Assembly (NCBI GenBank): GCA_030680605.1
Contig: JAUXUQ010000012.1
Span: 22,339 to 86,338 of the forward strand
Direction: 5' to 3'
Source: Gammaproteobacteria bacterium
GTDB taxonomy: Bacteria; Pseudomonadota; Gammaproteobacteria; SURF-13
Length of the DNA stretch: 64,000 nt
Shown piece after piece: positions 34,663 through 38,058 of this stretch. The notes beneath the pieces were generated by a model, which ran no database searches, had not been told where the DNA came from, and saw nothing but the letters and a program-made list of their open reading frames with translations. Position 1 is the stretch's first letter. Every line of letters starts with the position of its first letter. Made by a program: the position numbers and the translations under genes.

Positions 34663-35304
34663 TCAGTTGGGTGGATTTTCTTCCCGCGACTGCAACAGCG
34701 CCGTTACCTCGCGTGCCATGGCGCCACGTCCAAACACCAACTGCCAGCGTCTGCCGCCGACCTGGTGCCACAGCCACGCCGAGCGGATGGCGGCGAGCAG
34801 CAGCGCGCGCACCTTGTTGGCGGTTTCCGGGTTGGACAGATAGCCCTCTTCGCCCTGCACGATGATGCGGGGCGCGAGGGTGCTGATGGTATCGCTGTAG
34901 ATGGCCGCCAGTTGCGCGATGACTTCCGGATGGGTAATCGCCATCGTCTCGCGCTTTTGCTGCGTGGCCTCAATCGCCACGCCGATACCGCTCAGCATTT
35001 CCGGCTGCCTGGCCAGTTGCCGCTCCAGATGCATCACGCTGACCACATAGCGTGCGAGCTCGAGATCACGCGGCACCGCACCCTTGTCGAGTTGCTCCTG
35101 CAAGGTGCGCAGCCCGAGCCGCAGCGCCTGCGTGCCGCCATACACCGCCGCCGTAGTGTCGGCATTGACGTTGACGATGCTGACCAGACAGGCTTCCAGC
35201 GCCTCATTATCGACCATGTTTTTGCGCGCTGCCTGCTGCACCAGACGGCAGGCCTGAAAAATGCCGGCCAACGCCAGCACACGGTCTTTATAGGTAAATA
35301 TCAT
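34663..35304 (-). CDS. hflD: High-frequency lysogenization protein HflD
   Basis: Start refined to [18 protein letters not shown]. Conserved partner of mnmA. Confidence 0.8.
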
Positions 35305-36398
35305 GCCACGCCCTCTTTCCAAATAGACTCTATCACGCCACCGCCCAGACAGTCTTCACCCTGATAAAACACCACCGACTGGCCGGGCGTGACCGCGCGT
35401 TGCGGCGCGTCAAACCGTACTTCACATGTACCATTTTCTGTGTGCGCAAGCGTACAGGGCTGATCCGCCTGCCGGTAACGGGTCTTGGCCATGCACGAAA
35501 GCGGCGTGGGTGGCGCACTGCCCGCCACCCAGCAGAGATCCTGCGCGGTCAGGCCCTGACTGTACAGCAGGGGATGGTCATGACCCTGCGTCACGATCAG
35601 CGTGTTGCTGGCCATGTCCTTGCTCACCACGTACCACGCCTCGCCGCTCATGGCCTGCTGCCCGCCGATGCCCAGACCCTGCCGCTGCCCCAGCGTGTAA
35701 TACATGAGGCCATCGTGTTTGCCGAGCAGATCGCCATCTGCGCTGCGTATCTCACCCGGCTGGGCGGGCAGATAGCGCGAGAGAAAGTTTTTGAAGTTGC
35801 GCTCGCCGATAAAGCAGATGCCGGTGCTGTCTTTCTTGGCGGCATTCACAAACCCCTGCTCGGCGGCAATGGCGCGCACCTCGGGCTTGGTCAACTCGCC
35901 GAGCGGAAACAGGGTGGCCGCCAACTGCTTCTGGCCCAGGGCATGTAAAAAATAACTCTGGTCCTTGTTGAGGTCGCAGGCCTTCAGTAAATGACTCTGG
36001 CCCCCGCGCCGGACGACACGCGCATAGTGGCCGGTGGCGATCATCTCCGCACCGAGTGCCAGCGCATGCTCGAGAAAACTCTTGAACTTGATCTCCTTGT
36101 TGCACAGCACATCGGGGTTGGGTGTGCGGCCGACGCGGTATTCCTCCAGAAAATAGCTGAACACGCGCTCCCAGTACTCGCCTGCGAAGTTTGCGGCATG
36201 CAGGGGGATGTCGAGCTTGGCGCACACCTCTTTCGCATCCTGAAAATCCTCTGCGGCGCTGCACTGTCCCTCGCTGTCATCGCCCTCCCAGTTTTTCATG
36301 AACAAGCCGTGCACTTCATAGCCCTGCTGCAACAACAGCCATGCGGCGACGGAGGAGTCTACGCCGCCTGAGATACCCACCATAACGCGCTTACTCAT
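35301..36398 (-). CDS. mnmA: tRNA-specific 2-thiouridylase
   Basis: 365 aa. PP-loop SGGVDSSV. Full-length MnmA similarity. Confidence 0.95.
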
Positions 36399-36988
36399 GG
36401 ACGCCCTTCTTGTTCAGGGAAATCCTCTTTGTCGAGCCAGCCTTCAAGGCGCTGGATATACGGCGGCTCGCCGTTATCGAGAAACCACGAGTCAACCGCC
36501 CAGCGCTGCCCGCTGACCGACTCGCGGATCACGGCCGTCCAGTGCACATCCAGCACCCACTTCGAGCGACGCGCACGTTCCTGCAGCTCGTGCCAGCGCA
36601 GCAGTCCGTCTTGCTGCAACAGGCTGAGATAGCTGGTGGTGTTGGTGGATTCATCAATGCAATCCATCTGGCCCGGCAGGCCAGCACCGGCCACGTTGCC
36701 GCCCCGATCAGCCGAGGTACCGGCAAGGACACCGGTGAACTCCTCCAGTTGCGCGATGGCGCGCCGGATCATGGCACGCTCTTCTGCCGCCGAGGTGGCG
36801 GCCGGGGAAAACAGGGCGCGCGTGGACTGCCATTGCTGGTCACTGAGCCAGACAAACTGCCTACGGCTGCACTCGAAGTTATAGCAGACCTGCAGCCCCT
36901 TGAAGGCCGCGGCGTCTGCCTGCGCGCTACACACGGGTATTGCTCCGAGCAGGCAGCCCGTCACCAGCACGTATGGTATGCAGCTCAT
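36395..36988 (-). CDS. Secreted protein of unknown function, paralog 1 of a tandem pair
   Basis: Signal peptide, conserved Cys pair, conserved blocks [16 protein letters not shown] and [15 protein letters not shown] shared with the upstream paralog. Confidence 0.6.
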
Positions 36989-37599
36989 GACGCCGGCGGC
37001 TCCCAGCCGTCCTGCCACACCCGTAACGGCAATATAAACGGCGGTTCCCCATTATCGAGAAACCAGGAATCCACCGCGAACCGTTCTCCGCTCTCGTTGT
37101 CACGTATCACCGCCGTGGTATGCGGCCAGCCGAAGATGAAAAACCCACGCGTCACACGGTCTTGTACGCTGTGGCGAGTGACCAGACCCTCCTGCACCAG
37201 CATCGTGAGATAGCTGGTGGTATTGGTGGACTCATCAATACAATCCATCTGCCCATCTGTGCCTACGCCCTGAAAATTGCGCCCCTTGTCATTCAATGTG
37301 CCTGCCAATGGGCCGACCAGGGTCTCCATAAACGCAATTCCGTGCGCGATATCCCTGCGCTCATCCTCGGCAGTTTCAGCCGGCGATGAAAATCGATCGC
37401 GCACCTGCTGCCACTGCACAGGCGTCAGGGACACCTGCGTCACCTCGCGGCAGGTATGCCCGGAGCAGACTGAAAACCGTTCCGGCGCAGGGTCCGTAAT
37501 GATATCCCCTCGCACGAAGGTATCTGCATAAACAGACCCTATCCCCCACACGCTGACACCCCATGCCAGTGCGAGAACAAAACTGTTAACACAGCGCAT
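36985..37599 (-). CDS. Secreted protein of unknown function, paralog 2 of a tandem pair
   Basis: Signal peptide MRCVNSFVLALAWGVSVWGIGSVYA. Shares [16 protein letters not shown] / [15 protein letters not shown] blocks with paralog 1. Confidence 0.6.
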   Translation of the reverse strand: MRCVNSFVLALAWGVSVWGIGSVYADTFVRGDIITDPAPERFSVCSGHTCREVTQVSLTPVQWQQVRDRFSSPAETAEDERRDIAHGIAFMETLVGPLAGTLNDKGRNFQGVGTDGQMDCIDESTNTTSYLTMLVQEGLVTRHSVQDRVTRGFFIFGWPHTTAVIRDNESGERFAVDSWFLDNGEPPFILPLRVWQDGWEPPAS

Positions 37600-37605
37600 G
37601 GTGGG

Positions 37606-38058
37606 TTATGCCAGCTCAGTAAGCAGGCCGAGTGGATAGGTCTTGCCTGCACGATAATCATCGATACAACGCAGCACCATGGGGCTGCGCAACTGCTCAC
37701 CGAGCGCGCTCAGCTCATCGCGTGACAACCAGAGGGCACGCAGGATTCCACTGTCCAGGCTGCGCCCGGCCTCATGCTGCAGACAGGTGCCGCTGAAGCA
37801 CACACGCACGTAGGTTATGCCATTGGCCGGGCTGCGCCAGCGGTAAATCCCCACAATGGCCTGCGGCGCGAAATGCCAGGCCGTCTCCTCCAGTGTCTCC
37901 CGCACCACCGCTTGCAGCACCGTCTCGCCGTCGTCCAGGTGGCCCGCAGGCTGGTTATACACCACCCGCCCGTCGGCCTCCTCTTCCACCACGAGGAAGC
38001 GCCCCGCACCCTCCACCACCGCAGCCACGGTTATATGCGGTTTGTCGCTCATGGACAA
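37606..38058 (-). CDS. nudJ: Nudix hydrolase (NudJ-like)
   Basis: Nudix box AGHLDDGETVLQAVVRETLEETA. Same position relative to mnmA as in E. coli. Confidence 0.8.
   Translation of the reverse strand: MSMSDKPHITVAAVVEGAGRFLVVEEEADGRVVYNQPAGHLDDGETVLQAVVRETLEETAWHFAPQAIVGIYRWRSPANGITYVRVCFSGTCLQHEAGRSLDSGILRALWLSRDELSALGEQLRSPMVLRCIDDYRAGKTYPLGLLTELA

Follow-up and report, generated by a model that had tools for sequence, protein, structure and literature searches.

Organization of the Locus

The genes described here are located on the minus strand of a 64,000-nt stretch of contig JAUXUQ010000012.1 from a Gammaproteobacteria bacterium. This stretch is referred to as the window, and all coordinates are those of the window. 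Two open reading frames, geneB (36985..37599) and geneA (36395..36988), lie tightly spaced between nudJ and mnmA, on the same strand as these genes. geneB, the first or B-type copy, encodes a protein of 204 aa, predicted to be exported, that exactly matches NCBI record MDP1708707.1, annotated as 'hypothetical protein'. geneA, the second or A-type copy, encodes a paralogue of 197 aa (MDP1708706.1) that is also predicted to be exported.

Upstream of geneB lies a gene for a nudJ-like Nudix hydrolase (37606..38058, minus strand; PF00293), which ends 6 nt before the geneB ATG and whose product shares 38% identity with E. coli NudJ (E 1e-33). Downstream of geneA, mnmA (35301..36398, minus strand; PF03054, PF20258, PF20259), encoding tRNA 2-thiouridylase, is followed by hflD (34663..35304, minus strand; DUF489, PF04356). 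An earlier note on this DNA had described the pair as an insertion into the nudJ–mnmA–hflD block, at a position that is empty in E. coli. The Pfam assignments of the neighbors agree with this description, and in E. coli K-12 the interval from nudJ to mnmA indeed measures just 53 nt and holds no gene.

The junctions read in the window show three ATGA overlaps in series. The stop codon of geneB overlaps the start of geneA, that of geneA overlaps the start of mnmA, and that of mnmA overlaps the likely ATG of hflD at 35304. Such an arrangement would couple geneB and geneA translationally into the housekeeping nudJ–mnmA–hflD operon, in which case their expression is probably constitutive. A mobile-element origin of the pair was considered and rejected, as there is no plasmid homologue, the GC content is unremarkable and neither tRNAs nor Rfam elements were found in the window.

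Paralogy and Export Signals of the Two Proteins

The products of geneB and geneA are 51% identical over 156 aa (BLASTP, E 6e-50). They have two sequence blocks in common, the second of which ends in (F/Y)I, as well as an N-terminal C-x4-C pair formed by C45 and C50 in geneB and by C35 and C40 in geneA. All residues that are invariant in the wider family are kept in both proteins. The identification of the two open reading frames as tandem paralogs of about 200 aa with shared blocks and an N-terminal Cys pair, first made from the sequence alone, therefore stands.

The same applies to the claim that both proteins are secreted, as both N-termini resemble Sec-type signal peptides. In geneB the signal-like segment reads MRCVNSFVLALAWGVSVWGIGSVYA and is followed by DTF, residues 1–25 being the predicted signal peptide; in geneA it comprises 22 residues and is followed by QAD. 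Translation of geneA most likely begins with the ATG at 36988 that forms the overlap with the stop codon of geneB, because the NCBI record also has 197 aa and the corresponding ATG is used by the second-copy orthologs. A GTG at 37018, which would make geneA a lipoprotein gene, was rejected in view of the NCBI length of 197 aa and of the nature of the extension, which is an out-of-frame shadow of the conserved C-terminus of geneB.

A Large Family of Hypothetical Proteins

A homology search with geneB returned 1,523 matches at 90% clustering. The family comprises 1,318 clusters at 50% identity and is present in 508 species genomes, and both Beta- and Gammaproteobacteria are represented among the 80 closest loci. 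Named carriers include Sulfuriflexus, Sulfuricellaceae, Gallionellaceae, Sedimenticola and Sulfuritalea, with oxidizers of sulfur or iron and respirers of selenate or nitrate among them, and denitrifiers are found among the carriers as well. Sedimenticola selenatireducens DSM 17993 is a cultured carrier.

Members typically consist of approximately 180 residues and are 'hypothetical' in every source. In a survey of export signals in 138 full-length representatives, a hydrophobic, signal-like N-terminal segment was present in 131 and lipobox-like motifs were found in 59. The family is thus predicted to be exported by the Sec route, some relatives being periplasmic proteins and others lipoproteins.

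Scans of both proteins, of 30 + 150 relatives and of consensus sequences against Pfam, NCBIfam and PHROG gave no family match, and sequence searches of the PDB with one protein and two profiles yielded nothing relevant. No family could be assigned from the sequence at the outset, and with respect to these four resources that statement holds. The only recurrent sub-threshold match, to PF20271 (CATASP), occurred in 16 of 150 relatives with a best E of 0.0023, and was discarded as noise since the matching region could not be located in ten members scanned singly. A large family, with some 1,300 clusters at 50% identity in 508 species genomes, is thus absent from Pfam, NCBIfam and the PDB.

Conserved Residues

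Conservation was counted over 152 diverse members of the family and is given in geneB numbering. Cys120 (codon TGT, 37240..37242, minus strand) is invariant (152/152). It lies in the motif D119-C-I-D-E123 as the first residue of the predicted helix 120–136, and is the proposed nucleophile. Its counterpart in geneA is Cys110 (codon TGC, 36659..36661, minus strand), the invariant C88 in mature numbering. His160 (37120..37122, minus strand; His149 in geneA, 36542..36544, minus strand) is conserved in 149 of the 152 members, opens the predicted strand 160–167 and is the proposed general base. Asp177 (37069..37071, minus strand; Asp166 in geneA, 36491..36493, minus strand), the proposed third residue of a triad, ends the predicted strand 173–177 and is present in all 152 representatives. 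Outside this set two variants were seen at this position, one Glu (P0020) and one Asn (L199).

In addition to these Cys, His and Asp residues, the family has a conserved acidic cluster. Glu80 and Glu92 are present in 152 of 152 members each, and D119 and E123 in 150 of 152 each; further conserved positions are H143 (149/152) and R151 (148/152). The N-terminal Cys pair (Cys45-x4-Cys50; 37450..37467, minus strand) is retained in 148/148 of those representatives, out of the 152, that cover these columns. It is located in a predicted β-hairpin with strands 41–46 and 52–56, which it probably staples by a disulfide. Where an exported protein conserves one free Cys, that residue usually has a function.

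Gene Neighborhoods across the Family

In 26 of 81 loci mnmA is located directly downstream of the family gene; 28 of the 81 loci contain hflD and 19 contain nudJ. Two contexts can be distinguished. In one, the neighbors are rluE, nudJ, mnmA, hflD and MoxR/DUF58 genes; in the other, they are an ABC permease and ATPase, accA and tilS, with tilS two genes downstream of the family gene in approximately 12 loci. In one locus (L002) the family gene adjoins selU, and it is also found in unrelated contexts. Genes for a TupB-like oxyanion ABC permease and ATPase precede the family gene in about 12 betaproteobacterial loci, and where the junction was read the family gene overlaps the ATPase open reading frame by a few nucleotides (ATGA in L199). 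No binding-protein gene was found upstream of the permease in the two loci read, L199 and L142. A TgpA-type transglutaminase was not found beside the MoxR/DUF58 genes in related loci, where the operon is Bat-like. The neighborhoods examined gave no clue to the substrate.

The recurrence of mnmA and tilS, together with the single selU neighbor, could be read as pointing to a partner of tRNA wobble modification. This reading is highly implausible. Contact with cytoplasmic tRNA is unlikely because nearly all members carry a signal peptide or lipobox and a likely disulfide. Moreover, the housekeeping pairs mnmA–hflD and accA–tilS are conserved and do not require the family gene, which is missing from them, e.g., in E. 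coli, and which is itself also found in unrelated surroundings. As the family proteins are exported, the idea that they work together with mnmA, tilS or selU was rejected.

The hosts and the three conserved Cys residues could alternatively suggest a periplasmic thiol-redox protein or sulfur carrier, in which Cys120, perhaps together with C45 and C50, would pass through a persulfide or mixed-disulfide state in a cycle. Such a function would suit organisms that oxidize sulfur, selenium or iron, and carriers do include sulfur and iron oxidizers and respirers of selenate or nitrate; some neighbors (mnmA, and selU in L002) handle sulfur or selenium as well. However, MnmA and SelU act on tRNA in the cytoplasm while the family protein is exported, no match to thioredoxin, rhodanese, DsrE or Sox-like proteins was obtained, and no sox or dsr genes lie nearby in the loci examined. 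A carrier function would also leave the conserved His and Asp at triad positions unexplained, and we regard it as very improbable.

Predicted Fold

The AF2 models of geneB (pLDDT 85.2, pTM 0.81) and of the mature part of geneA (pLDDT 88.5, pTM 0.86) have a common topology, consisting of a hairpin, two helices, a helix headed by the conserved Cys and four antiparallel strands. According to DSSP, the helix starts at this Cys in both models. His160 is predicted at the start of the second strand after the Cys helix, and Asp177 closes the strand after that, with a spacing in geneB of 40 residues from Cys to His and 17 from His to Asp. Both values agree with those of transglutaminase/papain-like cysteine enzymes, in which a His on a β-strand comes about 35–60 residues after the Cys, and an Asp, Asn or Glu on the next strand about 15–23 residues further on. 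From this placement we infer a transglutaminase/papain-like layout. The packing of one helix on a four-stranded sheet is widespread among proteins.

Foldseek searches of the PDB and BFVD gave no significant match for either model, the best E being 0.2–0.4 with probabilities ≤0.41, and the best matches had an rmsd of 6–11 Å and a TMq ≤0.37. Enzymes of the papain/transglutaminase-like superfamily account for approximately 21 and 23 of the top 50 matches of the two models, none of them significant. The highest TM-scores, 0.33–0.37 and likewise without significance, were those of TglA (9crn), a putative Cys protease (3isr), VASH1 and an arylamine N-acetyltransferase (NAT; 3d9w). The top BFVD match, also not significant, is a viral NAT (probability 0.41, TMq 0.34). 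With hmmscan, neither the two proteins nor any of 180 relatives nor the consensus matched a clan family of the transglutaminase/papain superfamily.

PepSY-like proteins and periplasmic proteins of no assigned function are found among the weak Foldseek matches as well, including the YpeB PepSY domain (5boi) and the periplasmic protein 4poi. Together with the lack of a significant enzyme match, this would be consistent with an inactive scaffold or a protease-inhibitor-like module, with a cystatin- or PepSY-like helix-on-sheet architecture and residues conserved for folding or protein contacts. We consider this improbable, as the PepSY-type matches span only 67–69 columns with a TMq of 0.17–0.23, and as such conservation of Cys, His and Asp across approximately 1,300 clusters at 50% identity would be atypical of a scaffold.

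The unusually dense set of invariant acidic, His and Cys residues could also belong to a non-catalytic periplasmic binder, i.e., a chaperone, sensor or accessory protein in which C120, H143, H160, D119, D122, E123, D177, E80 and E92 would bind Cu, Zn, Ca or a small molecule. The TupB-like ABC linkage in about 12 betaproteobacterial loci, two of which were read and have no binding-protein gene upstream, fits this idea, as does the lack of a significant enzyme-family match. However, the linkage is missing from the gammaproteobacterial loci, the window included, and the searches gave no match to established metal-binding families or to the folds of periplasmic binding proteins. In addition, H143 would lie, as judged from strand topology, at the end of the sheet opposite H160, which misfits a single metal site, and the modeled placement of Cys, His and Asp appears to fit a triad exactly. 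We regard a binder of this kind as unlikely.

A thiol-dependent enzyme, suggested with reservation in the earlier note, is thus favored by the invariance of Cys120 and Asp177, the near-invariance of His160 and their triad-like placement in the AF2 models, structural matches being below significance throughout. According to that note, an unambiguous hit to an established binding or structural family would speak against such an enzyme; searches by sequence and by Foldseek did not find one.

Comparison with Known Transglutaminase-Like Proteins

A close parallel in general design is offered by the BTLCP/LapG proteins (PF06035, Peptidase_C93), calcium-dependent periplasmic transglutaminase-like cysteine proteases. 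They are likewise small and exported, have an N-terminal lobe before the catalytic core as predicted for geneB and geneA, and show the same order of Cys, His and Asp. In both cases the Cys is the first residue of a helix, and two consecutive strands carry the His and the Asp. LapG and DvhG have a D-C-E motif at the nucleophile, in which D316 and E318 bind calcium (PMC13090378). Acidic residues thus flank the Cys in both families, although in a different register. In geneB (D119-C120-I-D122-E123) the D119-C120 step is conserved, but position +1 is Ile and the acidic residues follow at +2 and +3. The Cys-to-His and His-to-Asp spacings also differ, being 40/17 in geneB and 34/15 in the BTLCPs measured here. 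Genes for a LapD-type receptor, a T1SS and a large adhesin, which mark LapG loci, were not found near the family loci examined.

PF06035 was not matched at E up to 10 by the proteins, their relatives or the consensus, while phage BTLCPs used as a control gave an E of 1e-18 to 1e-44, and no structure of LapG, a solved periplasmic BTLCP, is included in the 50 Foldseek matches listed for the two models. Profile–profile comparison was carried out for two member families of the superfamily, BTLCP and NAT. For the BTLCPs, represented by 26 phage-encoded proteins collected via the motif GDCEDYA and verified as PF06035, hhalign aligned only the DCxD motif with a probability <1%, and 7 of 60 column shuffles scored as high; membership was rejected.

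Proteins with a transglutaminase core (PF01841), such as 3isr from Cytophaga hutchinsonii and TglA from S. pyogenes (9crn), share the triad order with the family. Both match the geneA model with a TMq of 0.35 and a probability of 0.21–0.30, but with an E of 0.4–1.1 and an rmsd of 7–11 Å; TglA ranks second for the geneB model. No similarity to geneB and geneA was detected by sequence or HMM.

Vasohibins, transglutaminase-like Cys-His-Ser tubulin carboxypeptidases, are recurrent weak matches of both models (TMq ≤0.33; rmsd 6.0 for 6lpg). The VASH1 triad C169/H204/S221 has a spacing of 35 and 17 (PMC4866520), so that the distance from His to the third residue is the same as in geneB. Calcium-dependent activation has been proposed for these enzymes. 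They differ in being eukaryotic, cytosolic and dependent on SVBP and in having Ser as third residue, and sequence similarity was not detected.

The NATs (PF00797) include the match with the highest TMq for the geneA model (0.37 for 3d9w). Their helical N-terminal domain bears the Cys and is followed by a β domain with the His and Asp, the triad spacing being approximately 39/15. NATs are cytoplasmic and depend on acetyl-CoA, whereas the family studied here carries export signals. NAT membership was not supported, as PF00797 was not matched and hhalign against 110 NhoA-like sequences scored at shuffle level with a probability <1%, a weak test because of the low diversity of that set (Neff ~2).

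Proposed Function

We propose, with moderate confidence, that geneB and geneA encode novel, highly divergent exported thiol enzymes with a core of the transglutaminase/papain type. In these, Cys120, at the N-terminus of its helix, would act as the nucleophile and His160, on the second strand after the helix, as the base, oriented by Asp177, the last residue of the next strand. The lobe ahead of the core would consist of the β-hairpin, with its probable Cys45–Cys50 disulfide, and two helices bearing the invariant Glu80, Arg81 and Glu92. By analogy with LapG, this lobe may form a cation or substrate site beside the nucleophile together with Asp104, Asp119, Asp122 and Glu123. Such enzymes would probably act on a protein or peptide of the envelope, either hydrolyzing a peptide or amide bond in it or catalyzing a transfer at that bond. 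If they are indeed periplasmic thiol proteases, amidases or transglutaminases, these proteins would constitute a new branch beside the envelope enzymes of the LapG/BTLCP type. If the enzyme reading is wrong, the family still merits a DUF entry, since its invariant residues are unusually sharp.

A broader and rather unlikely version holds that the scaffold of this exported Cys-His-Asp family either converged on the transglutaminase/papain clan or diverged from it past detection, and that the genes are translationally coupled into housekeeping operons linked to growth rate. The contexts concerned would, equally tentatively, be nudJ–mnmA–hflD in Gammaproteobacteria and, in Betaproteobacteria, a position directly behind an rRNA operon with accA–tilS. 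A new envelope-processing activity, which might for instance mature or trim some protein of the periplasm or outer membrane, would then be linked to ribosome and tRNA biogenesis.

With respect to the thiol-enzyme reading, the pair in the window is proposed to go back to an ancient tandem duplication whose order is fixed, the B-type gene preceding the A-type gene. Different specificities of the two copies are suggested by their divergence in the C-terminal tail and in the loop ahead of the proposed catalytic His.

A putatively coupled five-gene unit

Between 34.6 and 38.1 kb, five tightly packed genes lie on the minus strand. The first encodes a NudJ-like Nudix hydrolase (37606-38058; 38% identity to E. 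coli NudJ, E 1e-33) and is followed, after a gap of 6 nt, by geneB (36985-37599, 204 aa), geneA (36395-36988, 197 aa), mnmA (35301-36398) and hflD (34663-35304). At the last three junctions of the unit, i.e., geneB/geneA, geneA/mnmA and mnmA/hflD, start and stop codons overlap as ATGA, a classic signature of translational coupling. As read from the sequence, positions 34663-38058 are an unusually tight, putatively translationally coupled unit of five genes. For geneA, the ATG at 36988 is taken as the start: it forms the ATGA with the stop codon of geneB, second copies that are orthologous begin likewise, and the NCBI record is also 197 aa long. For hflD, the listed TTG start (35322) is probably wrong; the ATG at 35304 fits E. 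coli HflD. Both paralogs are recorded at NCBI as "hypothetical protein" (geneA, MDP1708706.1; geneB, MDP1708707.1).

The order in E. coli K-12 is rluE-nudJ-mnmA-hflD-purB, with 53 gene-free nucleotides from nudJ to mnmA. GeneB and geneA are therefore additional to an otherwise conserved gene order, as the earlier note had proposed. GC content does not deviate, the window contains no tRNAs or Rfam elements, and no plasmid-borne homologs were found. The tandem paralogy and the signal peptides claimed in the same note hold as well. Aligned over 156 residues, the products are 51% identical (E 6e-50), and both contain the quoted sequence blocks and an N-terminal C-x4-C pair. Each opens with a typical Sec signal, which is predicted to be cleaved between VYA and D in geneB and between CSA and Q in geneA.

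An unnamed family of exported proteins

Among 5.8 billion proteins searched, 1,523 relatives were found. None of them carries a Pfam domain, and all named ones are called "hypothetical". With an HMM run without filters against 1.84 billion representatives at 50% identity, 1,318 clusters were recovered at E ≤1e-3 and 950 at ≤1e-10. The family is present in 508 of 185,579 species when one genome per GTDB species is scanned. The 80 closest loci belong without exception to Gamma- or Betaproteobacteria or to unclassified Pseudomonadota (among them Sedimenticolaceae, Sulfuriflexus, Chromatiales, Granulosicoccaceae, Rhodocyclaceae, Sulfuricellaceae, Gallionellaceae and Burkholderiales). One of the carriers, Sedimenticola selenatireducens DSM 17993, is in culture, and another, Ca. 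Desulfobacillus denitrificans, has a complete genome. Nearly all members are stand-alone proteins of ~200 aa. A hydrophobic N-terminus resembling a signal peptide is found in 131 of the 138 full-length representatives and a lipobox-like motif in 59 of them, so the family is exported, in part as lipoproteins. It is unnamed and uncharacterized, in keeping with the earlier view that no family could be assigned, and has a solid claim to be described as a new domain family, though as a biological anomaly it is not startling.

Conserved residues and predicted fold

Conservation was determined over 152 sequences, i.e., 150 representatives at ≤50% identity, geneB and geneA; residues are numbered as in geneB. 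E80, E92, C120, D177 and W195 are invariant, as are C45 and C50 wherever these columns are covered; R81, D119, E123, N126, H143, R151, H160 and G184 are ≥97% conserved, and D104, W179 and N183 ≥96%. All are kept by both geneB and geneA. Elsewhere, D177 is rarely replaced, by Glu in protein P0020 and by Asn in the member at locus L199. Both Glu and Asn are acceptable as third residue of a thiol-protease triad. The latter member (L199:5950-6585) reads RLWAVNSWF, a papain-type Cys-His-Asn variant.

The AlphaFold2 models of geneB (pLDDT 85.2, pTM 0.81) and, from a deeper alignment, of mature geneA (pLDDT 88.5, pTM 0.86) are confident and have the same topology. In both, the Cys pair lies on a β-hairpin, followed by two helices, the longer of which bears E80, R81 and E92, and by a loop of lower confidence. 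Cys120 is the first residue of the helix 120-136 after this loop. The fold ends in four antiparallel strands, with His160 starting the second and Asp177 ending the third. Transglutaminase-like/papain-like thiol enzymes are defined by such an arrangement, in which the Cys begins a helix, a strand 35-60 residues further on carries the His, and the Asp follows after another 15-23 residues; LapG/BTLCP, NAT, vasohibins and transglutaminase-core proteins are among the members of this superfamily (PMC4866520). The spacings in the family are 40 (Cys-His) and 17 (His-Asp), compared to 35 and 17 in VASH1 (PMC4866520) and a measured 34 and 15 in phage BTLCPs.

LapG and DvhG require calcium for activity, which is bound by the two acidic residues on either side of their nucleophile (D-C-E; PMC13090378; PMC4359373). 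The corresponding context in the family is D119-C120-I-D122-E123, and E80 and E92 (invariant) and D104 (≥96%) are further highly conserved acids. By analogy, a cation site next to the active center is plausible.

A proposed enzyme assignment

Foldseek found no match below E 0.3 in the PDB for either model, and no significant match in BFVD, where the top hit is an arylamine N-acetyltransferase. The weak matches are nevertheless coherent: papain/transglutaminase-like thiol enzymes make up ~21 of the top 50 for geneB and ~23 of the top 50 for geneA (NEDD8 protease, USPs, vasohibins, MOA, papain-like toxin, SseI, TglA, 3isr, NAT). Transglutaminase-like proteins account for every one of the highest TM-scores (0.33-0.37), about the level expected if only a core of ~90 of 175 residues superposes. 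Hmmscan of 180 members and consensus sequences matched no family of the clan. Hhalign against 26 verified BTLCPs and 110 NAT sequences performed no better than column-shuffled controls; BTLCP membership was rejected, while the NAT set was low in diversity (Neff ~2), which makes that comparison a weak one.

Since the structural matches are non-significant and the sequence methods blank, the thiol-enzyme model is rated slightly better than even, and no assignment to BTLCP, NAT or a Pfam entry is made for the family. The main alternative is a metal- or ligand-binding role. The cautious reading in the earlier note, a possible thiol-dependent enzyme, is the best-supported one; in mechanism, the family is most likely a group of exported transglutaminase/papain-like Cys-His-Asp enzymes that forms a new and very divergent branch.

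Sub-threshold matches to PF20271 (CATASP), the CATRA-associated small protein of caspase-linked defense systems, occur in 16 of 150 representatives (P0121-P0270; best E 0.0023); no matching region was found in ten members scanned singly, and the matches may be compositional.

A GDCEDYA motif search of IMG/VR retrieved at least 120 viral contigs (L003-L122, e.g., L009, L012, L101, L108), of which at least 26 encode BTLCPs of ~125-220 aa in which the C-H-D pattern is complete (PF06035, best E 6.5e-44). No obvious signal peptide is present in the four that were scanned against Pfam. Phage-encoded BTLCPs thus appear common.

Gene neighborhoods

Neighbors were clustered over 81 loci, i.e., the 80 related ones and the window. 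In Gammaproteobacteria the gene order is (rluE)-nudJ-family-mnmA-hflD, and a MoxR/DUF58 operon frequently comes next. The gene immediately downstream of the family gene is mnmA in 26 loci, and hflD and nudJ are present in 28 and 19. The Bat-like operon (MoxR (AAA_3), DUF58 and two more genes) follows hflD in ~10 loci (e.g., L170:8626-12327) and is absent from the window.

In ~12 betaproteobacterial loci, the order is TupB-like ABC permease, ABC ATPase, family gene, accA, tilS. The permease-ATPase-family order is seen in L199:1-7588, L142, L161, L163, L177 and L196 (Rhodocyclaceae and related Betaproteobacteria). The permease matches NF038017 and scores 184 bits against the TupB model, under that model's cut-off of 320, and no gene for a substrate-binding protein precedes it in L199 and L142, where this was read. 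In L199, the start codon of the family gene and the stop codon of the ATPase gene share an ATGA, and the block starts directly after a complete 16S-tRNA-tRNA-23S-5S rRNA operon.

The remaining members occupy unrelated places. At L002:6001-7738, P0109 follows ratA/rnfH-like genes and is convergent to selU (tRNA 2-selenouridine synthase), a third tRNA wobble-modification neighbor besides mnmA and tilS, a recurrence judged to be coincidental. The genes that recur beside the family are housekeeping genes for RNA modification, which cannot be direct partners of an exported protein. We read the family genes as piggy-backing on constitutive operons and reject a functional link. The neighbors in the 81 loci include no candidate substrate, receptor or secretion system.

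An old tandem duplication

Adjacent copies occur in nine of the 80 related loci, two in 8 and three in 1, and the B-type copy always precedes the A-type. B-type copies have a WPHTT motif ahead of the His strand and end in ...W.DGW.PP. A-type copies have a one-residue deletion, a (V/I)HWT motif and the C-terminus ...W.DK.DF, and are devoid of the N-terminal segment DTFVR.DIITDP. Where there is a single copy (71 loci), it is always B-like. The A-type orthologs at L123-L128 share 58-68% identity with geneA. The duplication is therefore old and both copies are maintained, which argues for sub-functionalization or a heteromer.

Compared with copies 1 and 2 of L124, the 222-aa protein P0027 (MAG HY028_00920) combines a B-type N-terminus and body with an A-type C-terminal tail (...PPYIQKLEDWRDKKDFDE); it looks like a tandem pair collapsed by recombination into a chimeric gene, or an assembly artifact.
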